Shown here: piece by piece, positions 7,964 to 60,376 of the stretch | Numbering within the stretch: the stretch's first letter is position 1 | Layout of the letters: each line of letters begins with the position of its first letter | Position numbers and translations under genes: made by a program | From: Candidatus Moraniibacteriota bacterium | Lineage (GTDB): Bacteria > Patescibacteriota > Minisyncoccia > Moranbacterales > GCA-2747515 | DNA length: 64,000 nt | Direction: 5' to 3' | Assembly (NCBI GenBank): GCA_016699795.1 | Contig: CP065011.1 | Coordinates: 418,474-482,473 of the forward strand | The notes under the pieces: generated by a model | Seen by the model: only the letters and a program-made list of their open reading frames with translations | The model's database searches: none | What the model was told of the DNA's origin: nothing

Positions 7964-8938
7964 ATGGAAAATCAATCGGTAAAAATCGTATTCAATGAAT
8001 TTCAAACTGATCTGCTGATAGGTTTTTTTAGCGACCTTGAAAAACTCAGATTTAAGAATCAGAACAATAGAACGGTTAGCATAAACCCAAATAAACACGA
8101 CGGCAGCTGGGTTTTTGACATGGATCCTTACGTACCCGCCATCAATGAGGCTTTCTCTCAAAATTTAGGAAAAATAAAGTATTTTGACCGACTAATTGAA
8201 GGGTTCAGCTCTTCCAATCTTTATCCGATTGTTAAAAGCAAAGACTCAATAACCGATTGCATAGAAAAACTTTCCCAAAAATACGGGCTGACAAAAATAC
8301 CCCTAATCTACACCACCGTTTTATTTCCATCCAAAGACAACCTTCCCGCCTTGGTCTGGGCTGAATTGTCTAGCATTGGATGTTTTGAAGAAAAATATTT
8401 TGGACATATCGATTTTATAAACGCCGTCTTGGAATTAAAAAAAGAAAAAAATATTGAAATAAAAGGTTTTGAAATAATGAATTTAGACGGGGCGGGTTTC
8501 ACATTTAAAATTATCTTGGCGCTAAAAAAAGAATTGGGAACCCACTCAGAAAATAAATTGTCTGACGCATATGAAATTTCGATCAAAGACAGGGAGATTT
8601 GGATTAATAACACATACCTTATCGGCAAACCTCACGGAGCTGGCAGCAACATGGAATTTTTCAGTTTTTTATTTGAACACCCAAATAAGTTTTTTAGAAA
8701 AAGTGAACTACCAGATGGAATTAAAAATGAAATAAAATCAAAAAAATTCTCAAAAATATTAAACAGTTTGGGTTTTAAAGGTGAAATATTAAAGGCATTC
8801 TTTCCGAAGAGAAGCACTAAGACGGGGTTATTGTTCAATAAAGTAATTTCCGATAAGGATATTGAAGAAAGAGGCATTAAAAAAGAAATATTTTTGAGGG
8901 AATTGGAGTTAGCTAACATAAGGAATAATCCAAAATAG
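7964..8938 (+). CDS. Hypothetical protein
   Basis: 324-aa ORF preceded by a structured intergenic region. No recognisable motifs. Confidence 0.5.
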   Translation: MENQSVKIVFNEFQTDLLIGFFSDLEKLRFKNQNNRTVSINPNKHDGSWVFDMDPYVPAINEAFSQNLGKIKYFDRLIEGFSSSNLYPIVKSKDSITDCIEKLSQKYGLTKIPLIYTTVLFPSKDNLPALVWAELSSIGCFEEKYFGHIDFINAVLELKKEKNIEIKGFEIMNLDGAGFTFKIILALKKELGTHSENKLSDAYEISIKDREIWINNTYLIGKPHGAGSNMEFFSFLFEHPNKFFRKSELPDGIKNEIKSKKFSKILNSLGFKGEILKAFFPKRSTKTGLLFNKVISDKDIEERGIKKEIFLRELELANIRNNPK

Positions 8939-8992: not shown

Positions 8993-9565
8993 ATGATTTT
9001 TTTATTTTCAAAAAAATATTCCGACCAAGAACTTCTTGAAATTTTCCCTGAAGCCAAAACGATAATACCCGAAAAGATTTCAGAATGGCAGGAGGAGTAT
9101 GACAAATTGGCAAATGAGATTAAGGGATTTTTGACCGCCGTCTATGAGCGTTGCCCCGAAAAGGATGTGTGGTTCTGGGAAATAGTCGCGGAAAAACTGA
9201 TGATTCCCGACCTGCTGAAAATAGAGAATCACATCTTACGCCTAAAAAGGCAACAGATAATTGCAAAGGGCAAAAGCAACAGACGCCAAGAAAATTACGA
9301 AAAGTTCCAAGAGAAAATTATACTTGCTCGATCCTATCCAATCTACGAACTGGCGCGTGACAAACTCGATCTCAAACCGTCTGGGAAAAACTTTGTGGCG
9401 TTGTGTCCCTTCCACAATGAAAAAACTCCCAGCTGCTATTTCTACACAGAGACCAATACCTTTGTATGTTTCGGATGCGGAGAAAAGAGCGACATTATAA
9501 AATTTACAATGCATTTTTACGGAGTCGGATTCCGAGACGCCGTAGAGATGCTTCAAGCAAGATGA
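8993..9565 (+). CDS. CHC2 zinc-finger (DnaG-type primase Zn-binding domain) protein
   Basis: 'CPFHNEKTPSCYFYTETNTFVCFGCGEKSDIIKF' matches the C-x-H...C-x2-C primase zinc finger. Its stop TGA overlaps the next ATG (ATGA). Confidence 0.6.
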   Translation: MIFLFSKKYSDQELLEIFPEAKTIIPEKISEWQEEYDKLANEIKGFLTAVYERCPEKDVWFWEIVAEKLMIPDLLKIENHILRLKRQQIIAKGKSNRRQENYEKFQEKIILARSYPIYELARDKLDLKPSGKNFVALCPFHNEKTPSCYFYTETNTFVCFGCGEKSDIIKFTMHFYGVGFRDAVEMLQAR

Positions 9566-29603: not shown

Positions 29604-29636
29604 ATATTTTTTATTTTATTCTTTTTTATGTAAAAA

Positions 29637-30020
29637 TTAAAAAAGAGCATTTCCATCAAGCCAATTACTTACCGCTGTAAGAATAATAACTCCTGAAAGT
29701 GCTATTACCACACCTATGATAGATCCTATCATATAGCGTTTAGCTGACTCTGTTTGTTTTTCATCCCCTCCTGAAGTGAGATACATAATACCGGAAATCA
29801 CAAAGGCAATAATGGCAATCATTCCCAAAATATACAAAAGCCAAAGCATAAGATTTTGAATAGTCTCCGCAATAGTTTTACTAGAAAGTCCGTAACCCGT
29901 ATAATTCCCCTTATTCCATCCAGAAGTAAGTGCAAGAGCGTGAGAAGAAACAAATGTTATTCCCAAAAGAATTATTCCCGGGAGAAAGGTCATTAACGAT
30001 TTTTTTTGATTCTTTTCCAT
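29637..30020 (-). CDS. TrbC/VirB2-like pilin-family protein
   Basis: 'IAIIAFVISGIMYLTSGGDEKQTESAKRYMIGSIIGVVIALSGVIIL'. Confidence 0.7.
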   Translation of the reverse strand: MEKNQKKSLMTFLPGIILLGITFVSSHALALTSGWNKGNYTGYGLSSKTIAETIQNLMLWLLYILGMIAIIAFVISGIMYLTSGGDEKQTESAKRYMIGSIIGVVIALSGVIILTAVSNWLDGNALF

Positions 30021-30201
30021 ATTTTTATTTTTTCAATAAAACTTATACATGTAGAATACCACAGATTTCCTTCTACACAAAACGACGCTTTTTCGCGTCG
30101 TTTTATCCTTTTCTCTTAAAGAGTGTAAGTTTTTATTCAATATATCTTTTGAGCTTAATTCTCTGCTAAAACAAAAATCTTTCTGTATTATTTGGAAAAA
30201 A

Positions 30202-30558
30202 TTAAAAATCATTACTTCCAGCAAGCCAACTATTTACAGCTGTAAGAATAATGAGACCTAGCAGGGCTACTACTACTCCTATTATAGCATACACCATAGC
30301 ATTCTTTGCTGTAGAGGCTCTATCATCACTTCCACCAGAAGTAAGATAGATCAAACCGGAGATCACAAAAGCAATAATAGCAATCATTCCCAAAATATAA
30401 AGAAGCCATTGCATAAGCCTTTGGATAACTGACCAGATTGTAGATTGTGATAATCCTGAACCATAACCTCCGGTACTAAGTTGAGCACTTACCGCTGCAG
30501 GAACAGTAAGAACGCACAAACTCAAAACATAGAAAGCTTTTTTTATAGTATTGATCAT
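30202..30558 (-). CDS. TrbC/VirB2-like pilin-family protein (tandem paralog A)
   Basis: 'IAIIAFVISGLIYLTSGGSDDRASTAKNAMVYAIIGVVVALLGLIIL'. Near-identical to 30911-31273 outside a variable mature N-terminal region. Confidence 0.7.
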   Translation of the reverse strand: MINTIKKAFYVLSLCVLTVPAAVSAQLSTGGYGSGLSQSTIWSVIQRLMQWLLYILGMIAIIAFVISGLIYLTSGGSDDRASTAKNAMVYAIIGVVVALLGLIILTAVNSWLAGSNDF

Positions 30559-30638
30559 TTTTCTTCACCTCCTTTCATTGTATTTTCGTTCATTTTTTTA
30601 TTTCTTTTATCTTTGTACTGAAAGTATATCATTTTTTT

Positions 30639-30821
30639 CTACTCAAGCAAAATACTGAGGGTGTAGAAAATAATCATAATCATAAGAATTCCTAATAAAC
30701 CCACGAGAGCAAAAAAAGTTGATCTTTTGGCCCGTTCTATATTTTTCGCATCTCCTCTTGAAAAAAGATATAAAACTCCAGAAAAAACAAAAGTAAGAAG
30801 GAAGATAGTGCCTGAGATCAT
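30639..30821 (-). CDS. Mini pilin-like membrane protein (60 aa)
   Basis: 'VLYLFSRGDAKNIERAKRSTFFALVGLLGILMI' matches the same motif. Identical to the C-terminal 60 aa of 31354-31623. Confidence 0.4.
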   Translation of the reverse strand: MISGTIFLLTFVFSGVLYLFSRGDAKNIERAKRSTFFALVGLLGILMIMIIFYTLSILLE

Positions 30822-30910
30822 GAAAAGGCCCTTCTAAATAATGTAAAGTATTTTTCTCCAAATAAAAACAGTGCTCGAGTGCACTGTTTTTATTTGAGTT
30901 CTCAATAAAA

Positions 30911-31273
30911 TTAGAATTCATTAGAATTCAATAGCCATGCATTAGCTGCATTAAGAATAATGAGACCTAGCAGGGCTACTACTACTCCTATTATAGCATA
31001 TACCATGGCATTCTTTGCTGTAGAGGCTCTATCTTCGTTCCCACCAGAAGTAAGATAGATCAAACCGGAAATCACAAAAGCGATTACCGCAACAAATCCA
31101 AGAATATAAAGAAGCCATTGCATAAGTCTTTGGATAGTCTCCCAAATTGTAGATGTTGATAACTCAGAGTCGGTCTTATATTGAGCCATATCTAATTGAG
31201 CACTTACCGCTGCAGGAACAGTAAGAACGCACAAACTCAAAACATAGAAAGCTTTTTTTATAGTATTGATCAT
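30911..31273 (-). CDS. TrbC/VirB2-like pilin-family protein (tandem paralog B)
   Basis: Same signal peptide and C-terminal module as 30202-30558. The variable region reads 'DMAQYKTDSELSTSTIWETIQ'. Confidence 0.7.
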   Translation of the reverse strand: MINTIKKAFYVLSLCVLTVPAAVSAQLDMAQYKTDSELSTSTIWETIQRLMQWLLYILGFVAVIAFVISGLIYLTSGGNEDRASTAKNAMVYAIIGVVVALLGLIILNAANAWLLNSNEF

Positions 31274-31353
31274 TTTTCTTCACCTCCTTTCATTGTATTT
31301 TCGTTCATTTTTTTATTTCTTTTATCTTTGTACTGAAAGTATATCATTTTTTT

Positions 31354-31623
31354 CTACTCAAGCAAAATACTGAGGGTGTAGAAAATAATCATAATCATAA
31401 GAATTCCTAATAAACCCACGAGAGCAAAAAAAGTTGATCTTTTGGCCCGTTCTATATTTTTCGCATCTCCTCTTGAAAAAAGATATAAAACTCCAGAAAA
31501 AACAAAAGTAAGAAGGAAGATAGTGCCTGAGATCGTGAGAAGAAAAAAGAATATCTTACGAAGAACTTCTGCTACCTTGGGAGCATCATCAATAACTCCA
31601 GCTTGGGCTATTTCAAAAATCAT
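31354..31623 (-). CDS. Mini pilin-like membrane protein (89 aa; N-terminal extension relative to 30639-30821)
   Basis: The C-terminal 60 aa are identical to 30639-30821. Confidence 0.45.
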   Translation of the reverse strand: MIFEIAQAGVIDDAPKVAEVLRKIFFFLLTISGTIFLLTFVFSGVLYLFSRGDAKNIERAKRSTFFALVGLLGILMIMIIFYTLSILLE

Positions 31624-33853: not shown

Positions 33854-33943
33854 GGAGAGATGCTAGAGTGGTCGAATAGGACAGTCTCGAAAACTGTTGT
33901 ATCGGAAACGGTACCGTGGGTTCGAATCCCACTCTCTCCGCCA
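33854..33943 (+). tRNA. tRNA-Ser (anticodon CGA), long variable arm, CCA encoded
   Basis: Acceptor GGAGAGA/TCTCTCC+G+CCA, anticodon stem ACAGT/ACTGT with loop CTCGAAA, T-arm GTGGG-TTCGAAT-CCCAC. Confidence 0.85.
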
Positions 33944-35449
33944 AAATTGGAAATCGGAATCAGAAGCCGAAATGGGGTCGGCGCGAAGCGCCGACGCAAA
34001 CGCATTCCCGCCAAAAATTCCCGAATTCAAAAGGTTTTTCCACGCTCCGCGTGGCTCAAAAAAGACGGTTCGATCCTTAATTTGAAAGTTCGAACCGACT
34101 TTTTTAAACAAATGAAGAAATTCTTCATTTGTTTTCTCGTTAGCCAATTCCACCATATAAATATTGGCTTTTAGAAGATTTTCGGTAAGTTCGAACCGAT
34201 TATTGGATTTTTTCTCAAAAGCCGATAATTTCTCTTTTAAAAGTTGTTTTTGATTCACTAACTTATTTTTAGAATCACGATATTCTTCCAAAGACAGAAC
34301 ATTTTCTAAATATAAGTTCATCAACTTTTCAACTTTTGAATCCAAAAGAGAAATTTCATCTTTTGTTTTTTGAGAAAAAATCTCACTCGATTGATTTTCT
34401 GATTGTCGGTTTTTCTCATTTTCGACAATCATCCAATTTGCCCAATCGAGTGGCAAAGAAACTTTTTTGATACTTTCTGCAATTTGAGAAGTGATGAGTT
34501 CTTCGCGAACATATTTTTGCAAGCAAGGATTTTTCCGTTTGGTACATCGCAAATAATTATGACCTTTTTGGGTTTCAGTGGTAATGAAACAACCACATTC
34601 TCCACAACGGAAAAATCCTCTATACAAAAATGGTTTCAGTCCTTTGGAGTGAGGTTTAGATTTCCTCATCATCACTTCTTGAACGGAATCAAAAAGTTTC
34701 TTTGTGATAATCGGTTCGTGCTTACCCTCAAAAATCTCTCCGTTATACCTCATTAAACCCGTATAGATAGGATTTTTGAGGATTTGCTGATAGTTCGACA
34801 CCGCAAGTTCCTTTCCGCTTTTTCGCTTCAATCCAAGTCCGTTAAATTTGTCGCGGAGTTGTCGCAAAGTGAAAGACCCAGACGAATATGCCTCAAATGT
34901 CTTTTTAATCAGTTTAGCAATTTCAATATCGGGAATGATTCCAGCACCTTTCACATTTACATATCCGAGCGGAGACATTTGAGGCCATATTCCGTCTTTC
35001 ACTTTGTTGCGATGACCTCGTTTGATATTTTCTGACAAGTTATCTACATAATACTTGGATTGCGAAAAAGCGATTGAGAGCATGAACTTGCCTTGCGGTG
35101 TCGGATCACACCAGAAAGTTGGAAATTTTAGCTCGGCAATTTTGCCCGTATCGAGCAAGTAAATAACTTTTCCACCATCAACACTATTTCTCGCTAATCT
35201 GTCGGGATGCCACGCCAAAATTCCATTTGCTTCACCTTGCTCGATACGGAGAAGCATTTCATTAAATACTGGCCGACCCGGAGATTTTGCAGTTTGTTTT
35301 TCTACAAAAATATCAACGACATCAATATCCTCTTTTATCGCCAATAGTTTGAGTTCGGCCAGTTGATCCGAAATGCTTCTCACTTGCCGATCTTCGGTGT
35401 CGATTGATTTGCGAGTATAGATAAAAAACTTTCTGGTGTGATTATTCAT
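33863..35449 (-). CDS. Large serine recombinase (C-terminus uncertain: ORF reads through flanking repeat and tRNA-Ser)
   Basis: 'YTRKSIDTEDRQ' catalytic motif, 'CGECGCFIT' zinc ribbon. Paralogous to 11188-12795. The last ~60 codons are translated repeat/tRNA sequence ('EWDSNPRY'), so the true stop is probably lost or lies near 34100. Confidence 0.75.
   Translation of the reverse strand: MNNHTRKFFIYTRKSIDTEDRQVRSISDQLAELKLLAIKEDIDVVDIFVEKQTAKSPGRPVFNEMLLRIEQGEANGILAWHPDRLARNSVDGGKVIYLLDTGKIAELKFPTFWCDPTPQGKFMLSIAFSQSKYYVDNLSENIKRGHRNKVKDGIWPQMSPLGYVNVKGAGIIPDIEIAKLIKKTFEAYSSGSFTLRQLRDKFNGLGLKRKSGKELAVSNYQQILKNPIYTGLMRYNGEIFEGKHEPIITKKLFDSVQEVMMRKSKPHSKGLKPFLYRGFFRCGECGCFITTETQKGHNYLRCTKRKNPCLQKYVREELITSQIAESIKKVSLPLDWANWMIVENEKNRQSENQSSEIFSQKTKDEISLLDSKVEKLMNLYLENVLSLEEYRDSKNKLVNQKQLLKEKLSAFEKKSNNRFELTENLLKANIYMVELANEKTNEEFLHLFKKVGSNFQIKDRTVFFEPRGAWKNLLNSGIFGGNAFASALRADPISASDSDFQFWRREWDSNPRYRFRYNSFRDCPIRPL
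34057..34105. terminator. Long near-perfect palindrome (16-bp stem) with A6/T6 flanks; likely terminator/true 3' end of recombinase gene
   Basis: aaaaaagacggttcga ... tcgaaccgactttttt. Confidence 0.45.
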
Positions 35450-35586
35450 AAAATTGTATTGGCAAACGAGGAGCCACGCGGAGCGTGGCGAATCCTTGCA
35501 GAATCAGGATTTTGTGGGGGGAATGCAGAACAGACGGCGCTTCGCGCCGACCATATTTTTGGTTCTGAAACCCTTTTCGAAAAATT

Positions 35587-35945
35587 GCGGTATTCATTGT
35601 ACAAAATTCGAACCTTTTTTGAAACCAATCCCGATGAGGAATGAATCGCCCCGCCACCGCCTCGCAGAGCCTCGGCAACCCCGAAAGAAAAAACACTCCT
35701 TGCATTTCTGATTTGGCGGGGGTGAATTTTCTTTTGAAAAAGGAAAGGGTGTTTTTCTTTCGGGGTTCTGCCCTCCAAGTATTCGGGCAGTGTGGCGGGA
35801 CGAAATGCGGACTCGGTTTTGCCAAAACTATTTTCTGGGGGAAAGGATTTGGCAAAACCTCGACTGAATTTCCCGCCCGCAGGAGGGGTCTGGGGAGGAA
35901 TGCGGGCGGGTTTCGGACTGGGGGTTTTTGGAAATTCGGCGGCTA
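35587..35945. repeat. Left copy of perfect ~359-bp inverted repeat (GC-rich, multi-hairpin, apparently non-coding)
   Basis: It is the reverse-complement of 39017-39375. The 98-120-aa ORFs on both strands have identical translations at the two loci and are low-complexity. Internal hairpins include ccccgaaagaaaaaacac/gtgtttttctttcgggg, ggttttgccaa/ttggcaaaacc and cccgcccgca/tgcgggcggg. Confidence 0.85.
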
Positions 35946-36043
35946 CAAAATCAGAAAATTCAGATTGAATAAATCTATAATTTTTGCTATCATTGTTTTG
36001 TGAGCAAAGAAAGAATCTTCTCATAAGATAATACTATCAAAGT

Positions 36044-36250
36044 TTGGATACTATGGCAACTATATCAGAAAACATAAAACGAATACGAACAAAACAAGGA
36101 TTGACGCAAGACGACTTGGCGAAGAAAGCGGACATCAAATACTCTACCCTTACAAAAATTGAGGGTGGTGTTGTTACAAAACCAAGTGTTCAAACAATCC
36201 AAAAAATCGCCAAGTCGTTGGGCGTTCCTATGGAGGAAATTTTGAAATAA
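36044..36250 (+). CDS. XRE-family helix-turn-helix transcriptional regulator
   Basis: 'IKRIRTKQGLTQDDLAKKADIKYSTLTKIEGG' is a canonical HTH_XRE sequence. 68 aa. Confidence 0.8.
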   Translation: MDTMATISENIKRIRTKQGLTQDDLAKKADIKYSTLTKIEGGVVTKPSVQTIQKIAKSLGVPMEEILK

Positions 36251-36251
36251 T

Positions 36252-37097
36252 ATGGATAATCAAGAAGAACAAAATAATATAGAAGTGCAACCTGATTTGT
36301 ATCTTGAATCACCAAAGGCTTTTCATCTTGAAATGCCTCCTTACCACAATTTTGATTTGTCCACTAAAGCTATTTCAAGAGCCATATATGAAATTTTAAG
36401 TAACAGATCAACTATTGATGCTTATTGTATTTGGTGCGGAAAAGAAGGCGTGTTTAGGGCATACAACTATCTATCTGATAATGTTTCTGTTCCTCCCTGG
36501 ACAAAAAGAAATAATGGATTGATAGAAATAGAGTATCGTTGCACTCGTAACGAATCCCATGCTTACCACACTTATTATTTTAAGGCGGGTGATTTTTTTA
36601 CAAAAGTTGGACAGTTTCCATCTGTTGCTGATTTTCAAATACCTCAAGTTGAGTCGTATCGAAAAATTCTTGACGAAGAACAATATAAGGAATTTACACG
36701 CGGGATCGGTCTATCCGCTCATGGCGTAGGTATCGGTTCATTCGTGTATCTTCGCCGTGTTTTTGAAAATCTTATTGAAGAAGCTCATAATAAAGCAAAG
36801 GCGGAAGACGAATCGTTCTCGGACGAAGCATATATACGAGCAAGAATGGATGACAAAATTGAAATGGTAAAAGAATATTTACCAGAATTCCTTGTCGAAA
36901 ATCGCTCATTATATGCAATTTTGAGTAAAGGTATTCATGCCCTAGGCGAAGATGAGTGTTTGCAATATTTCGAAACAGTGAAAATCGGAATTGAGCAAAT
37001 TCTTGACGAAAAAATTATTGCTAAAGAAAAAGCAGAAAAAGCCGCTTCTGCTCGTGCCGCAATTCAGAAAACACATGGCAAAATAAATGGAGTATAA
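36252..37097 (+). CDS. Hypothetical protein paired with XRE regulator (possible Abi/HEPN-like effector, unassigned)
   Basis: 281 aa. It starts 2 nt after the XRE stop. A CxxC pair lies near the N-terminus. No confident domain assignment. Confidence 0.5.
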   Translation: MDNQEEQNNIEVQPDLYLESPKAFHLEMPPYHNFDLSTKAISRAIYEILSNRSTIDAYCIWCGKEGVFRAYNYLSDNVSVPPWTKRNNGLIEIEYRCTRNESHAYHTYYFKAGDFFTKVGQFPSVADFQIPQVESYRKILDEEQYKEFTRGIGLSAHGVGIGSFVYLRRVFENLIEEAHNKAKAEDESFSDEAYIRARMDDKIEMVKEYLPEFLVENRSLYAILSKGIHALGEDECLQYFETVKIGIEQILDEKIIAKEKAEKAASARAAIQKTHGKINGV

Positions 37098-37102
37098 AAC
37101 TT

Positions 37103-37690
37103 ATGGAAATAAACAGACCAAAATCTAAACAACCGATTCCCGATAACGCCAAAAAGGTTTTTGCTGGAGTGCTTTTTGATGTCTATCAATGGGAGCAAGA
37201 ACTTTTTGACGGAACAAAAACTCTTTTTGAAAAACTGAAACGCCCTGATACCGTTGTCGTTTTTCCAGTTTTAGATGACGGGAAAATTATACTTACAGAA
37301 CAAGAACAACCCGGCAAAGAACCTTTTATCGGGGCGACTGGCGGGAGAGTTGATAAGGGCGAAGATATTTTGGAAGCGGCGAAACGCGAACTTCTTGAAG
37401 AAAGTGGTTACGAAGCATCAGAGTTTGTCCTTTGGGACGCCCAACACCCGACATCAAAAATTGATTGGGTTGTTTATACTTTTATCGCCAAAGGGCTTAA
37501 AAAAGTTTCTGAAATGAATCTCGATGCTGGCGAAAAAATCACTCTAAAGTTAGTTGATCTCGATGAGTTTATTGAAATTGCATTAAATAAAAATTTTGTT
37601 GAAAAGGAAATAATTCCAAAACTTTACGAGGCGAAACTTTACCCAGAAAAGAATGAAGAACTTAAAAAGTTATTTAACCCAAAATTTTAA
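37103..37690 (+). CDS. NUDIX hydrolase
   Basis: Nudix box 'GGRVDKGEDILEAAKRELLEESGY' (GX5EX7REUXEEXGU). Confidence 0.8.
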   Translation: MEINRPKSKQPIPDNAKKVFAGVLFDVYQWEQELFDGTKTLFEKLKRPDTVVVFPVLDDGKIILTEQEQPGKEPFIGATGGRVDKGEDILEAAKRELLEESGYEASEFVLWDAQHPTSKIDWVVYTFIAKGLKKVSEMNLDAGEKITLKLVDLDEFIEIALNKNFVEKEIIPKLYEAKLYPEKNEELKKLFNPKF

Positions 37691-37693
37691 TTT

Positions 37694-38086
37694 ATGAAAA
37701 CAATTTTAGTTGATGCCGTAGATGCGTTTGTTGTAGAAACCGAAAATGGTTTCGAGATTTTTGAGCCAGTGCAAAAAATGCTCAACGAGTTTCCAAACAC
37801 CAAAATAATTCTTACTGGTGCGAATGATGAACAGTTTAAGAAATTTGGTCTGGATAAAATGCCATATGAAGTTTTTACACTAAAACACGACCCTGAAAAA
37901 ACCAACTCCGAGTATTACAAAAAAATGCTTGAGCATTTTAACTTTAAGCCGGAAGATGTTGTTTATTTTGAGCACAACCCTGAAGCAGTAAAAAGTGCTC
38001 AATCAGTCGGTATCAAAACTCATTTTTGGGACAACGAGAAAAGACCATTGAGAGAGTTGAGTATTTTCTTGGAAAACAGCATTTAA
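37694..38086 (+). CDS. Small HAD-like hydrolase (putative phosphatase/nucleotidase)
   Basis: 'MKTILVDAVDAFV' is motif-I-like; 'KIILTGAND' and 'VVYFEHNPEAV' are also HAD-like. The assignment is tentative. Confidence 0.45.
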   Translation: MKTILVDAVDAFVVETENGFEIFEPVQKMLNEFPNTKIILTGANDEQFKKFGLDKMPYEVFTLKHDPEKTNSEYYKKMLEHFNFKPEDVVYFEHNPEAVKSAQSVGIKTHFWDNEKRPLRELSIFLENSI

Positions 38087-38089
38087 TAT

Positions 38090-39019
38090 ATGAAACCAAT
38101 CCTCGTAACTTGTTATGTAAATCCCGACCTCGACGGCGTTGCTGGCGCAATCGCCTACGGCGAATTTTTACAGAAAACTGGCAAAAATACTGTCGTAGGG
38201 ATTATTGGCGAACCACACGACGAAGCGAAGTATATTTTAGATTGCTTTGGCTTTGAATATCCGCCAATGATAGAAAACGCGGATAATTTCGATGAAGTGA
38301 TACTCGTGGATGCAAGCGACCTCAATGGACTTGAGGGAAAAATATCTGCCGAAAAAGTCATCGAAATTATCGACCACAGAAAAGTCCATGAGGCGGATAA
38401 ATTTCCCAATGCCAAAGCGCAAATTGAGCTTGTTGGTGCGGCCGCTACTCTTGTCGCAGAAAAATTTATGCAAAACAAAGTTGATATATCGAAAGAATCA
38501 GCAACACTTGTTTACGGAGCAATAATTTCCAATACCCTCAATTTCAAGGGAAGCGTTACCACTGACCGCGACAAAGTAGCAGCCGAATGGCTCAATAAGG
38601 TTGCGAAATTGCCCGAAGATTTTTGGAAAGATTTGTTTATCGTAAAATCAGATTTATCAGGCAATAAACTTACAGAAAGAATAGAGGGCGATTTCGCATG
38701 GTTTGTTATGGGCGACAAAAAAGTTGGTATCGCCCAAGTTGAAATGATTGGTGCTAAAAAACTTGTAGACAAAAGAAGTAGCGAGATTGTTCAAGTGTTA
38801 GATAAAATCAAAAAAGAGATGGGCCTAGATTTTATCTTCCAAAATACAATCGAGCTTGAAGATACAAAAAACTTTTTTGTCGCTCAAGATTCCGAAACAC
38901 AAAAACTTTTGGAAAAAGTTTTGAAAGTTCAATTTGCTGGCGTAGTCGCGGAGCGACCAAATCTGATTATGCGCAAGCAAATTGTTCCTTTGTTGAAGGA
39001 TGAGTTAGAATTGAAATAG
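38090..39019 (+). CDS. DHH-family phosphoesterase (NrnA/PpaC-like)
   Basis: 'ILVTCYVNPDLDGVAGAIAYGEFL', 'VILVDASD', 'IIDHRKV' are DHH motifs I-III. Its stop TAG lies inside the right inverted repeat. Confidence 0.7.
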   Translation: MKPILVTCYVNPDLDGVAGAIAYGEFLQKTGKNTVVGIIGEPHDEAKYILDCFGFEYPPMIENADNFDEVILVDASDLNGLEGKISAEKVIEIIDHRKVHEADKFPNAKAQIELVGAAATLVAEKFMQNKVDISKESATLVYGAIISNTLNFKGSVTTDRDKVAAEWLNKVAKLPEDFWKDLFIVKSDLSGNKLTERIEGDFAWFVMGDKKVGIAQVEMIGAKKLVDKRSSEIVQVLDKIKKEMGLDFIFQNTIELEDTKNFFVAQDSETQKLLEKVLKVQFAGVVAERPNLIMRKQIVPLLKDELELK

Positions 39020-39375
39020 CCGCCGAATTTCCAAAAACCCCCAGTCCGAAACCCGCCCGCATTCCTCCCCAGACCCCTCCTGCGGGCGGGAAATTCAGTC
39101 GAGGTTTTGCCAAATCCTTTCCCCCAGAAAATAGTTTTGGCAAAACCGAGTCCGCATTTCGTCCCGCCACACTGCCCGAATACTTGGAGGGCAGAACCCC
39201 GAAAGAAAAACACCCTTTCCTTTTTCAAAAGAAAATTCACCCCCGCCAAATCAGAAATGCAAGGAGTGTTTTTTCTTTCGGGGTTGCCGAGGCTCTGCGA
39301 GGCGGTGGCGGGGCGATTCATTCCTCATCGGGATTGGTTTCAAAAAAGGTTCGAATTTTGTACAATGAATACCGC
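39017..39375. repeat. Right copy of perfect ~359-bp inverted repeat
   Basis: Reverse-complement identical to 35587-35945 over the whole length compared. Confidence 0.85.
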
Positions 39376-39399
39376 TATAGAGTTTTTTCCAATATGGGA

Positions 39400-39690
39400 T
39401 TAATTTCCCGTATTGGAGAAAATATTGTGAAAAATCAAAGGGATTCGAACGGGTAGGAGCGAGTCCTCGAGTATCGATGGATGCGAATAAATGAGCATTC
39501 AGCGCTACCCAGGACAACGAACTCCCATTTTGGGAGTGAGGCGAAAATCCCACTCTGGGCAGTGAACGAAGTGAATGAGGAAGAGAAAGAAAGCAAAGAG
39601 TTTTGCTTTCTTTGGAATGAGAAGGGACTTGCGAAGCGACAAAAGTCACCGAAAGTCCCCGGCCCGAAGGGGAATCTCTCTCTTACTTAA
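39400..39690. other. GC-rich structured non-coding arm of the tRNA-Ser element
   Basis: No credible ORF. Contains 'GGGATTCGAACGGG', reminiscent of the tmRNA tRNA-like domain, and a 'GAAAGTCCCCGGCCCGAAGGGG' hairpin. Related sequence recurs in the mini-element after tRNA-Pro(CGG). Confidence 0.35.
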
Positions 39691-39754: not shown

Positions 39755-41947
39755 CTACATCGATTCGCATGACATATATTTTTCTATAGAACCATCTGCA
39801 GCAAGAAGTGTTCCTATCATAAATCTTCGATATCCATTTGCACATTCTGCCACACCATTGTAATCGGGGCACGAAATTGGGAACTGTAAAGTCTCTCCTC
39901 TTGGCCCCGTGCATGAACGAATAGATCCGTTCGAATTTTGAACCACAACAGCATACCCATAAAGTCCGCCCTTACGAGGACTCGTAAAAGATCCTGATAT
40001 TGACTCGCATGAATAATATCTAGACGTAAAACTTTCTGTTATTGAACCTGTTCCAATGCGACGAAAACCACTCTCACAAATAGGTATATTATCCCCTCCA
40101 CAAGTCATTGGAGAAGATGCTCCGCAACCAACAGCATTGCCTTGTTGCATAGTAACTATACCAACGCCATATAATTTTCCTTTTTCTTTTATCGCTGGAT
40201 ATGAGTTTGTATTTGCTTTGCACGTATACACCGTGTACGCTCCCCCGGCATCGGGCACACTTCCGATTTTTGACAAATAGAAACCTCTTTCACAGACTGG
40301 CTGCTCCAAATTATTGCATGAAATGGGATCGATCGTTTCTCCATCCCAAATATCACCTGCAGGCTTAGGTCCTTTACAATAGTCATTTCTTACCATTACA
40401 GCACCGAAAAGTGATTCGGAATCATAGGGTCCTCTGTAAGAAGGTTGATCTTTTAAGATTTGAGCTATCTGAGCATTTGAAGAAGATTTATCTGAACCTT
40501 TATCTACCAACTTCACATACGTTCTTTTTCCATACGGATAGGAATTATTACCACTCTTCCATGTCCACGTTAGTAAATCTTTTTGTCTAATATCTTCATC
40601 AAGATATAATTGTCGCACTGCATAAAATTCACTTTGGTTATACGTGACTTGAAAAGAGTTCATTGAGAGACTGCCCTTATCTTGATAGATATCATTTCTC
40701 ATATCAACGACAGTTGAAAGTGCCCACACATCTTTTCCGTATTGAGCTGCAAGTTTTCTCACAACTTTATTAACAAGGCGGTGTTGTTCATGACCATATT
40801 CACCCCAATTATTATGCGTCACAATGCGCTTTGTGGTACTCGCACTCATAATTGGTTTTAATTTAGCTTCAAGAACACTAGCGGAAACAAGTGATTGTCG
40901 AGAGATTGGATTTGTTTTGTATTGAGCTATGTACGTTGAAACATCCGTTCTTCCATAAATCGTTTCCCATTTCTGGCTATAGTTATAAGGGGTTTTATTT
41001 ACAATATTTTCAAAAGGAGGTGTTGCTGGATATGCAGAAAGTACAAATTTTTGAGCTACCTTAAAAAATGGAAACATCCAGAGTAAATCATCATCTTGAT
41101 GGGCAAAAATAAGCACAGTGCCTCCATCTGAAAATTCTGCTGGCAAAGTAGGATCTCCTCCTCTCGAACCCTTAAACGTAGCTGTTACATTACGAGATTG
41201 TGTGAGAGATACAGAACACGTTTTACTTGTTCCTCTACAATCCCCTGTCCATCCTTCAAAAGTATTTCCACTTTGAGGTGAAGCTGTGAGTGTAACCTTT
41301 GTATTTTGAGGTAATGTTTTTGAACATGTTGTACCACAATTAATTCCAGAAGGATTTGATACTATTGTTCCTGCTCCAGTACCAGCTTTTGCTACAGTAA
41401 GAGTTTGTTGTCCTTGTTGTGTAGAACAGTTAATTTTCTTTGGTGAACCACTAATGACATTGTTTGGTCCTCCAGAAATATCAATAGCATGAATGTATAT
41501 ATTCTTTTCACCTTGATTACGGAATGAGGAAGGAAGTTTACAGTCAAAGCCATGAGTTCCACTAATACCATAACCTTTGTTTATATCAGGTCTGGAAACT
41601 TTTGTTTGACATCCTGCTATAAATTTTCCTCCTTTACCATAAGGAGCTCCTTCATAAAAATGAACCCAGATAGATGTTCTGGAGTTATCAGGATCATAGG
41701 CCCAACCTTTTACACTACAAGTATTGGAGTCAGGACCATCAAAAGCTCCTATAGCAGGTTTAGCACTTGCAGCATCTGAAAATGGTAAATCAAAAGAAAT
41801 TCCTGAGAAGATATCCCTTGTTGTTGCTTTTTGAATAAGAAGAATACTTCCAAGAAAAAAGCTTATGACAAGAAGAAGAGAAATGATTTGTATTTTAGAA
41901 TCTTTTTTTTGTTTTTTTTTGTTTTTTTTTGTTTTTTTTGAAAACAT
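39755..41947 (-). CDS. Secreted/membrane-anchored multi-domain protein: InlB B-repeat-like domain + LmbE/PIG-L-like deacetylase domain + Cys-rich C-terminal region
   Basis: N-terminal Lys-rich segment plus TM. 'LTVAKAGTGAGTIVSNPSGINCGTTCSKTL...GNTFEGWTGDCRG...CSVSLTQSRNVTATF' is a divergent InlB B-repeat. 'VLIFAHQDDDLLW' matches AHPDDE and 'HNNWGEYGHEQH' matches HxDH of LmbE/PIG-L. Confidence 0.65.
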   Translation of the reverse strand: MFSKKTKKNKKKQKKDSKIQIISLLLVISFFLGSILLIQKATTRDIFSGISFDLPFSDAASAKPAIGAFDGPDSNTCSVKGWAYDPDNSRTSIWVHFYEGAPYGKGGKFIAGCQTKVSRPDINKGYGISGTHGFDCKLPSSFRNQGEKNIYIHAIDISGGPNNVISGSPKKINCSTQQGQQTLTVAKAGTGAGTIVSNPSGINCGTTCSKTLPQNTKVTLTASPQSGNTFEGWTGDCRGTSKTCSVSLTQSRNVTATFKGSRGGDPTLPAEFSDGGTVLIFAHQDDDLLWMFPFFKVAQKFVLSAYPATPPFENIVNKTPYNYSQKWETIYGRTDVSTYIAQYKTNPISRQSLVSASVLEAKLKPIMSASTTKRIVTHNNWGEYGHEQHRLVNKVVRKLAAQYGKDVWALSTVVDMRNDIYQDKGSLSMNSFQVTYNQSEFYAVRQLYLDEDIRQKDLLTWTWKSGNNSYPYGKRTYVKLVDKGSDKSSSNAQIAQILKDQPSYRGPYDSESLFGAVMVRNDYCKGPKPAGDIWDGETIDPISCNNLEQPVCERGFYLSKIGSVPDAGGAYTVYTCKANTNSYPAIKEKGKLYGVGIVTMQQGNAVGCGASSPMTCGGDNIPICESGFRRIGTGSITESFTSRYYSCESISGSFTSPRKGGLYGYAVVVQNSNGSIRSCTGPRGETLQFPISCPDYNGVAECANGYRRFMIGTLLAADGSIEKYMSCESM
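41903..41939. repeat. Four homopolymeric T8-9 tracts separated by G (A8-9 on coding strand) within first 15 codons of 39755-41947
   Basis: tcttttttttgtttttttttgtttttttttgttttttttg encodes KKTKKNKKKQKK. Confidence 0.8.
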
Positions 41948-48121: not shown

Positions 48122-48245
48122 CAATAATGAATGGGCTGAAGTACACAAACTGCTTTGCGTGCGTCGGAAATTGAAGGGATGGGCGATGCGTTTCGCCGAC
48201 TATCCCTGGCCCGAAGGGAATTTCTAGCAGCCTGACGTGAATTAA
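48122..48245 (+). mobile_element. Miniature tRNA-3'-end-associated element (remnant/CIME-like) with degenerate tRNA-Pro 3'-end copy
   Basis: 'ccctggcccgaagggaatttctagcagcctgacgtgaatt' ends in a degenerate copy of 'ttcaattcccggcagcccgacaataat'. The internal 'gaaggga..gcga.gcg...ggcccgaaggg' parallels the arm at 39630-39675. Confidence 0.35.
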
Positions 48246-59874: not shown

Positions 59875-60033
59875 CACCAAGGAAGTACGTCAACTACTTG
59901 ACGTATGTGAGGATTTGAAAGCCGGAGCGATGTGCGAAGCACCGCGAGGCGGGGTCGAAAGATTTTCTTTGAAAAAAGAAAATACTTGTGACCAAATCCT
60001 CTCCTGGGCACACCAAGGAAGTATGTAAGGAGA
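59875..60033 (+). mobile_element. Miniature element inserted at tRNA-Leu(GAG) 3' end: 115-nt insert bounded by perfect 31-nt direct repeat
   Basis: 'caaatcctctcctgggcacaccaaggaagta' at 59857-59887 recurs at 60003-60033. The intervening 'gaaagccggagcgatgtgcgaagcaccgcgaggcggggtcgaaagatttt...gaaaatacttgtgac' is shared with the element after tRNA-Val. Confidence 0.5.
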
Positions 60034-60187: not shown

Positions 60188-60376
60188 CAACAAACATCGT
60201 GAGTTTTGTGTGTTATGTACGCCAACTGCTTGGCGTACATAGGGACGAGAAAGCCGGAGTAAAGTGTGAGTTTTCCCTGAATCTTCGAAGGGAAAGGCAA
60301 ACACCACGAGGCGGGGTCGAAAGATTTTTCCGTCAGGAAAAATACTTGTGACCGAGTCTCTCGATAAGTACACAAT
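60188..60376 (+). mobile_element. Miniature tRNA-Val 3'-end-associated element with degenerate tRNA 3'-end copy
   Basis: The internal 'gaaagccggagtaaagtgtga...accacgaggcggggtcgaaagatttttcc...gaaaaatacttgtgacc' is homologous to the tRNA-Leu mini-element. The terminal 'gagtctctcgataagtacacaat' resembles the tRNA-Val 3' end 'gagtcccttagcacgcacaac'. Confidence 0.35.

Follow-up and report, generated by a model that had tools for sequence, protein, structure and literature searches.

The window analysed here comprises 64,000 nt of a 1.19-Mb contig (CP065011.1) from a metagenome-assembled genome (MAG) of Candidatus Moraniibacteriota, one of the Patescibacteria of the candidate phyla radiation (CPR). 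It contains a pair of perfect inverted repeats that enclose a small gene cassette beside a tRNA-Ser(cga) gene. After the tRNA gene come a gene on the opposite strand for a large serine recombinase (LSR), the left or near arm of the repeat, a gene for a helix-turn-helix (HTH) regulator of the XRE family, four cargo genes and the right or far arm (Table 1). The LSR open reading frame (ORF) runs antisense through the whole 3′ part of the tRNA gene, its last ~25 codons being the reverse complement of the tRNA. Each arm is a copy of Y, as we call a discrete non-coding module of ~360 nt that is conserved and folded. Little is known of how CPR bacteria, with their tiny genomes, gain and swap genes. 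The locus exposes a recurrent cassette platform made of a small XRE regulator and Y, often as an inverted pair, parked at tRNA genes, with cargo that spans restriction-modification (R-M) systems, transporters, nucleotide-metabolism enzymes and even a seryl-tRNA synthetase.

Reading the bases directly, we found that the two arms are exact reverse complements over 359 nt. Slightly extended arms of 362 nt (35584-35945/39017-39378) matched at 361/362 positions by blastn, with a lone mismatch at 35586/39376. There are two copies of the repeat in the window, and their GC content (~0.47-0.53) exceeds that of the surroundings (0.30-0.40). The first three bases of the right arm (39017-39019) form the TAG stop codon of the DHH gene, and the left arm lies 135 nt from the recombinase gene. 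An initial sequence-only reading had described the perfect repeat with these coordinates, its GC richness, four named hairpins that are indeed present in the arms, the shared stop codon and a serine recombinase nearby, and all of this proved accurate.

That reading had also cautioned that the region might be mis-joined. Inverted repeats are classic break points, and many related contigs begin or end within Y, so that assemblies of CPR genomes frequently and recurrently break at the Y pair. Single-copy sequence might then have been mis-assembled to give the second arm or the join. The source record is nevertheless a 1.19-Mb contig, and an independent Logan de Bruijn assembly (SRR11674012) holds a 3131-nt contig with both ends of the cassette and exactly 30 nt of either arm (window 35916-39046), as expected of a k=31 graph that breaks at a genuine inverted repeat. 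The same paired architecture was found in 18 further loci from different projects and assemblers, some with arms only 87-96% identical, which collapse could not produce. A mis-join is thus very unlikely, and we regard an assembly artefact as extremely improbable.

A folded non-coding module in both arms

The widely conserved part of the region, as delimited by nhmmer, coincides with the repeat itself. When one genome per GTDB species was scanned for the pattern, 157 Y stretches were found in 78 loci, nearly all labelled Patescibacteria, including Saccharibacteria and Uhr-, Moran-, Nealson-, Magasanik-, Berkel-, Peregrini-, Levy- and Gottesmanbacteria. Metagenome contigs contain at least 120 stretches that match a 23-mer of the core exactly. 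Over 100 Patescibacteria genomes thus have Y; loci in other genomes and contigs are cited below by L numbers. The same 23-mer had no match in the viral contigs of IMG/VR, indicating that the module is not evidently phage-borne, and blastn searches of phage and plasmid collections returned no DNA similar to the repeat. No Rfam 15 family fitted the repeat at gathering or permissive thresholds, whether the whole window, 6.5 kb or 431 nt was scanned, the best E-value being 0.09, far below any gathering score. ARAGORN detected neither a tmRNA nor a tRNA in the repeat, and a literature search found no description of such an element. Three contigs with Y (L015, L048 and L066) belong to MAGs labelled Alphaproteobacteria, Gammaproteobacteria and Pseudomonadota; they are probably mis-binned, the distribution being otherwise exclusively Patescibacteria.

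The left arm lies inside a 192-aa ORF (36024 to 35446, - strand) that fills the gap between the divergent XRE and recombinase genes and is annotated in the public record as hypothetical protein IPN70_02240 (window 35446-36024). Such an ORF, intact, overlapping the recombinase start by 4 nt (ATGA) and accompanied by hundreds of similar database ORFs in the same gene order, could be taken for a genuine gene. A comparison with 5.8 billion proteins gave 961 matches, all unnamed, from Moraniibacteriota, Pacebacteria, Vogelbacteria and others, and they align over ragged sub-ranges. In a multiple alignment the homologues traverse the same nucleotides in differing reading frames (LPEYLEGRTPKEK / PNTWRAE / ARILGGQN), indicating that conservation acts at the nucleotide level and that the ORFs are spurious. 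Moreover, the ORF matches no Pfam family, the far arm has the same sequence without it, and nucleotide conservation tracks helices rather than codons. A real 192-aa protein is therefore scarcely credible, as the sequence-only reading had judged of the coding capacity of the repeat, and Y explains hundreds of spurious hypothetical proteins (about 960 similar database entries).

We describe the fold on the strand that runs outward from the cassette. It starts with Pa, a stem of 9-11 bp with a conserved C-rich loop of 20 nt, and Pb, a hairpin of 12-15 bp. A long-range helix of 12 bp, Pc, then closes a junction made up of H1 (6 bp), the 29-bp hairpin H2 and H3, and a variable segment follows 3′ of the junction. 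In an alignment of 75 copies, a core of ~150 nt is nearly invariant, and the flanking hairpin stems are wholly different between subfamilies while retaining their complementarity. The core is far more conserved than the recombinases, which are only 25-45% identical where the core hardly changes, and this implies strong selection on some property.

As whole-module alignment with MAFFT and RNAalifold missed the peripheral helices, owing to length variation, the fold was assessed with anchor-based tables and two covariance models. The tables revealed unrelated complementary versions of the stems, four for Pa, at least six for Pb and four for Pc. Model R1, for the core junction, gave 82 sense matches (77-197 bits; both window arms at 192 bits). 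Its cells were paired in 97.2% of cases compared with 90.2% after shuffling (0/500), with a covariation of 0.211 against 0.088 for shuffled and at most 0.049 for slid controls, and the closing helix Pc showed double changes in 11/12 pairs. Model R2, for the 5′ domain of Pa and Pb, gave 52 sense matches, with 93.1% paired cells against 80.9% shuffled (0/500), a covariation of 0.279 against 0.105 and double changes in 16/23 pairs. Fitting the alignments to the models makes these counts lean toward structure, and the independent anchor-based tables agree with them. On the outward strand, G.U cells outnumbered A.C cells by 181 to 37, an excess that identifies the outward strand as the folded one (- in the window for the left arm, + for the right arm). 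Compensatory changes beyond the controls in both models fit a structured RNA present twice, which the sequence-only reading had offered as its alternative explanation. Judged by these patterns, Y appears to be a well-supported candidate for a large RNA family missing from Rfam.

Paired arms, the XRE gene and variable cargo

Among the loci with two copies of Y, 19 have outward-facing inverted pairs with arms 1.4-7 kb apart: the window; L002, L007, L013, L015, L026, L027, L028, L030, L031, L033, L054, L064 and L067; and L109, L138, L151, L156 and L161. Direct copies were found in only two loci (L006 and L076), and several loci with full flanks have a single copy. The arms are identical in L028, L161, L156, L109 and L026, 99.5-99.7% identical in L002, L031, L033 and L054, 98-98.5% in L030 and L151, and 87-96% in L013, L067, L064, L138 and L027. 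Thus they mostly share 98-100% of their bases within a genome, yet diverge between genomes. It is reasonable to suppose that recent duplication or gene conversion, both proposed by the sequence-only reading, would uphold this identity. The limits of the arms are homologous in all genomes: the inner one is the start of Y, and the outer one lies 9-12 nt past a -10-like hexamer. We also noticed variant copies: a third, diverged copy head-to-head with an arm (L028:10420-10681), a direct partial copy 5.5 kb away (L006:2194-2453), and two copies that miss the invariant core (L007:6476-6625 and 7984-8454).

The XRE-family gene is the only gene constantly linked to Y, and it is adjacent to and divergent from the near arm. 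PADLOC defence models recognized only this regulator. In contrast, the cargo between the arms is unrelated from genome to genome. Elsewhere it includes TaqI or AlwI R-M systems, an HNH nuclease with a methylase, Mrr, parts of ABC transporters, LysE, glutamate dehydrogenase, a NUDIX-glycosyltransferase and an 1802-aa fn3 protein. In L007 the XRE protein is 92% identical to that of the window, and the next gene is nonetheless unrelated. One cassette (L031:3301-4587) carries seryl-tRNA synthetase and SAM synthetase genes, indicating that housekeeping-type genes also move as cargo.

An island at tRNA-Ser(cga) and its recombinase

The Y pair of the window sits inside a 5.5-kb island, extending from ~33944 to 39378 or up to ~39540, at the 3′ end of tRNA-Ser(cga). 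Three relatives (L090-L092), which are distant (their flanking solute-binding protein is 62% identical), lack the island and have in succession pilins, a binding protein, a methyltransferase, tRNA-Ser(cga), a trailer of ~180 nt, DUF4446, IF-2 and the CCA-adding enzyme. In the window, the gap from the tRNA to DUF4446 measures 8.5 kb and is filled by the island, a decayed tRNA 3′-end copy in direct orientation, the ancestral tRNA trailer and a gene of 730 aa. Exact-sequence searches of public assemblies for the recombinase and for this 730-aa neighbour gave no match.

The recombinase lies at one end of the island, by the tRNA 3′ end, as it does in L002, L006, L007, L012, L054 and L067. The succession of cargo, XRE gene, Y, recombinase and tRNA recurs at tRNA-Ser genes of various anticodons in L002, L006, L007 and L012, and the same arrangement of cargo, XRE gene, Y and recombinase is found beside tRNA-Ala or tRNA-Leu in L054, L067 and L031. 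In L002, two neighbouring tRNA-Ser genes have one such island each, and one far arm stops 18 nt short of the next tRNA, a spacing that places the terminus of the island at the outer end of Y.

Each arm ends with an outward promoter-like site. Subfamilies of divergent sequence retain a TGn-TA[CT]AAT motif together with a -35-like hexamer, and the 3′-terminal bases of the tRNA next to the element are matched by the heptamer that comes after it. This heptamer is ...ACCGC(CA) in six loci where the tRNA is tRNA-Ser, and ...ACCACCA in five loci with tRNA-Ala or tRNA-Leu. In the window the perfect repeat stops exactly after ...ATACCGC, and when the right end of the island was examined for a tRNA copy, the arm terminus itself was found to hold only ...ACCGC. 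We had considered that the outer end of the arms might be half of a pseudo-tRNA. The alignment with the 3′ half of tRNA-Ser is weak (~60%) and the bases read better as a conserved -35/-10 promoter, so that only the match of the terminal heptamer was kept as meaningful. If this match reflects the choice of site by the recombinase, the enzymes and their sites could be a source of tRNA-end-specific integrases.

The tRNA 3′ end is also represented beyond the far arm by the decayed copy. The 164-nt spacer that separates it from the arm contains an inverted T-arm-like motif and the GTCCTCGAG motif, which is also found directly 3′ of tRNA-Ser in an island-free relative. These motifs may be remnants of an earlier insertion at tRNA-Ser, or the spacer may be part of the island. 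In L090, which is island-free, 21 nt of the tRNA-Ser 3′ end are repeated perfectly and in direct orientation ~125 nt downstream of the gene (9067-9089 vs 9192-9215), as if an element had once integrated at this same site and been excised again.

LSR genes were found beside 7/12 XRE-proximal arms with enough flanking sequence, and the homologues that adjoin Y in other loci are 25-92% identical to the window protein. In the window the LSR gene is itself framed by 120-nt inverted repeats, X at its 3′ end and X′ in the leader between Y and its start. X and X′ are 73% identical in the window, 98-100% in L002 and 79% in L006/L007. The LSR ORF takes opposite orientations between the same flanking repeats in two species, being in the sense orientation in L067 (10397-12160) and flipped in L077 (547-2310), and a version of the site without LSR, in which Y is followed by a palindrome and then the tRNA, is present in L055 and L073 (L073:10310-10430). 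In these arrangements, the recombinase gene itself behaves as an invertible or bi-orientable unit.

The sequence-only reading had favoured flip-flop inversion of the cargo, in which the recombinase or homologous recombination would turn 35946-39016 around and alter expression. A perfect inverted repeat that adjoins a serine recombinase would suit such a switch, as would the outward promoter-like sites at both arm ends, which a flip could re-target, and the two orientations of the recombinase gene between its own repeats in relatives indicate that inversion occurs in the system. Nevertheless, in each of the 7 distinct loci that combine an XRE gene with an adjacent recombinase, the cassette has its XRE end toward the arm nearest the recombinase, and a single orientation is seen in three samples of one population (L002-L004). 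The cassette has its own regulator and promoter and there are no alternative partner genes outside to be switched. Unrelated cargo across genomes fits a mobile cassette better than a conserved switch, and some loci have one arm only. We thus consider cargo inversion quite unlikely.

Table 1. Positions of the features of the island and its borders in the window
Feature	Position	Strand	Remarks
tRNA-Ser(cga), integration target	33854-33943	+	ARAGORN, Rfam; 3′ end ...CTCCGCCA abuts the island; syntenic in L090/L092
LSR gene (528-aa ORF)	33863-35449	-	Pfam Resolvase, Recombinase and Zn_ribbon_recom
X, 120-nt arm at the 3′ end of the LSR gene	33938-34057		GC hairpins 33977-33995 and 34040-54; inverted partner of X′
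X′, leader between Y and the LSR start	35471-35590		Inverted copy of X; hairpins 35474-35488 and 35535-35549
Left (near) arm, module Y	35587-35945	- (sense)	Pa 35872-35910; Pb 35815-35859; core junction (Pc/H1/H2/H3) 35644-35804; R1 192 bits, R2 114 bits
Outward promoter-like site, near arm	35623-35596	-	TTCAAA-16-TACAAT, then terminal ...ATACCGC
Divergent control region, Y to XRE gene	35946-36052		Promoter-like sites 35965-35993 (+) and 36059-36031 (-); near-arm homologues reach into the region
XRE-family HTH regulator	36053-36250	+	Pfam HTH_3; PADLOC HTH_VI and R-M control protein
Cargo: 281-aa protein of unknown family	36252-37097	+	
Cargo: NUDIX hydrolase	37103-37690	+	
Cargo: HAD-like protein	37694-38086	+	
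Cargo: DHH/DHHA2 phosphoesterase	38090-39019	+	
Right (far) arm, module Y	39017-39375	+ (sense)	Co-directional with the cargo operon; Pa 39052-39090; Pb 39103-39147; core 39158-39318
Outward promoter-like site, far arm	39339-39366	+	TTCAAA-16-TACAAT
Spacer beyond the far arm, 164 nt	39376-39539		Inverted T-arm-like motif GGGATTCGAACGGG 39440-39453; GTCCTCGAG 39463-39471
Decayed copy of the tRNA-Ser 3′ end, GGCGAAAATCCCACTCTGGGCAG	39540-39562	+	Direct to the tRNA; from alignment with L090/L092; ancestral trailer follows at 39614-39676

Role of Y and comparison with known systems

Taken together, these features lead us to lean toward a reading in which the two copies of Y are the ends of the cargo section of a small LSR-type integrative island at tRNA-Ser(cga), with the Y terminus as the crossover region. 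The near arm would be a long structured leader between the XRE-controlled divergent promoter region and the LSR gene, and the far arm a structured 3′ end of the cargo transcript that reads out of the island. The promoter-like motif and the tRNA-copying heptamer (...CCGC-CA) at the Y terminus would form the crossover region of the recombinase. Excision would proceed through the tRNA 3′ end and the Y terminus, so that the far-arm Y would be rejoined to X in a circle, with the LSR gene between two Y-core-X modules in inverted orientation. Were one of these modules used for integration, Y would be left at one end of the island and X beside the tRNA. Such a scheme would account for the stop of the repeat at ...ACCGC, the X/X′ pair, the two orientations of the LSR gene and the location at tRNA genes. 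Y is predicted to be transcribed, and our best guess for the function of its fold is that it acts in cis on recombinase expression or on read-out from the ends of the island.

Several observations weigh against this reading. Recombinases are missing near 5/12 XRE-proximal arms and most Y copies, indicating that Y is not strictly dependent on a recombinase in cis, and to our knowledge large serine recombinases do not need hundreds of bases of flanking structure. The contrast between X and X′, 73% identical in the window, and the Y arms, at 100%, is not predicted by a simple common origin in one circular repeat. The decayed tRNA copy lies 164 nt beyond the far arm, and the island could have its true right boundary at this copy instead of where the arm stops. 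This contrast and this gap fit the model untidily and may reflect successive events. As for the fold, the longest hairpin, H2, and its loop are almost invariant and do not covary, and H2 could be a DNA site or a protein-binding site instead of an RNA helix; in addition, four or five Y copies are chimeric, with a broken Pc closing helix. Lastly, near-perfect arm identity in short-read assemblies is possibly in part an assembly effect.

Some of these points would suit a role of Y as DNA, either as long terminal inverted repeats (TIRs) of a non-autonomous transposon-like cassette moved in trans, or as a structure formed by single-stranded DNA, for instance an origin of replication or transfer or a site resembling attC. 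The fixed inner and outer ends, the TIR geometry around variable cargo and the extra adjacent copies, as in L028, are in keeping with it, as are the invariant long hairpin and the many copies with no recombinase nearby, and G.T pairs are tolerated in folded single-stranded DNA. Conversely, no transposase was found in or near the cassettes, and a comparison of the outer flanks of both arms in eight loci detected no common direct repeat that would represent a target-site duplication. The elements also lie site-specifically, at the 3′ ends of tRNAs. Helices that have undergone several compensatory changes while their loops stayed conserved are typical of RNA, as is a strand on which G.U exceeds A.C by 5:1, and integron attC sites all point in the same direction, whereas Y copies are inverted. 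A DNA-level role therefore has a modest probability in our view.

Classical transposition and integrons were set aside on related grounds. No transposase domain was found in the island or in 30 cargo proteins, and phage and plasmid collections hold nothing similar, so that the repeat is not the terminus of an insertion sequence (IS), a match that the sequence-only reading had named as refuting, and it lacks the marks of a composite transposon or a miniature inverted-repeat transposable element. An integron cassette array does not fit a serine-type recombinase and repeats that are inverted in 19/21 two-copy loci.

A bolder proposal can also be made. Y might represent a new class of functional RNA, be it a ribozyme, a fold that senses a ligand or an RNA that partners the machinery of recombination or replication, that would define a CPR-wide system of cassette exchange at tRNA genes. 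The RNA rather than a protein would then be the conserved determinant of mobility or maintenance, with serine recombinases as interchangeable accessories. We consider this rather unlikely.

The Hin, Gin and Cin inversion systems use ~26-bp sites, small invertases and an enhancer to switch a promoter or alternative gene ends. The island resembles them in having inverted repeats next to a serine recombinase and, in relatives, a recombinase segment in both orientations. It differs by its 359-nt folded arms, its large serine recombinase and the single orientation of its cargo.

The bridge RNA of IS110 and the omega RNA of IS200/IS605 are structured non-coding sequences at the ends of mobile elements. 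Like them, Y lies at the very end of the element, beside or upstream of a recombinase, and is oriented toward the element boundary. However, Y occurs in two inverted copies, often without a recombinase, and no DEDD, TnpB or IscB protein was found in the island or among the cargo proteins. We also considered Y as a guide RNA. The longest complementary matches between Y and its flanks were 6-9 nt, compared with a shuffle mean of ~6.7 and a maximum of 10-12, which is at chance level, and the Pc sequence does not follow the type of the target tRNA. This idea was thus abandoned.

The yeast 2-micron plasmid has 599-bp inverted repeats and FLP. If the island circularises as proposed, it would likewise be divided by two long inverted repeats, with the recombinase on one part of the circle, the cargo on the other and the recombinase targets inside the repeats. 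FLP is, in contrast, a tyrosine recombinase of a eukaryotic plasmid, and for the island a circular form is hypothetical, as would be any replication function. The Rfam families GOLLD and ROOL comprise large bacterial RNAs that are GC-rich, have many helices and are often encoded close to tRNA genes or on mobile DNA, properties that Y shares. It differs from them in being smaller (~300 nt of fold), in forming inverted pairs and in matching no Rfam 15 family.

The nearest published concept is that of the tycheposons of Prochlorococcus, which are cargo-carrying islands at tRNA genes (Hackl et al., bioRxiv 10.1101/2020.12.28.424599). As in the part of that account considered here, the islands are small and found in streamlined genomes, have a site-specific recombinase at one end, insert at tRNA genes, carry modular cargo that varies widely and form tandem arrays at their tRNA sites. 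Tycheposons have partial copies of the tRNA at the far end, to which the decayed tRNA-Ser copy beyond the far arm may correspond. In that same part, neither a conserved structured non-coding module nor a long inverted repeat that brackets the cargo is described for tycheposons (10.1101/2020.12.28.424599). They usually have replication genes and a tyrosine integrase, with a large serine recombinase in 27/937 elements (10.1101/2020.12.28.424599), whereas the constants here are Y, a small XRE regulator and, at about half of the near arms, a serine recombinase. As far as this partial comparison goes, the locus appears to be a tRNA-gene island that carries an apparently new structured RNA family.

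Some minor observations concern the rest of the window. A conserved sequence of ~53 nt follows three tRNA genes, for Pro, Leu and Val (48141-48193, 59885-59937 and 60217-60269), and may serve these tRNAs as a common trailer or processing element; past the far arm, 39546-39681 weakly resembles the sequence after tRNA-Pro. A long T-rich tract of TTTTTTTTG repeats (41901-41943) at the 5′ end of the 730-aa gene (- strand) encodes a lysine-rich N-terminus and is possibly prone to slippage. Upstream of the tRNA, a perfect direct repeat of 300 nt (30481-30780 and 31196-31495), accompanied by copies 67-86% similar, lies in a tandem array of small pilin-like membrane protein genes (29619-31273), and relatives have matches to the T4SS_pilin family at the same position.

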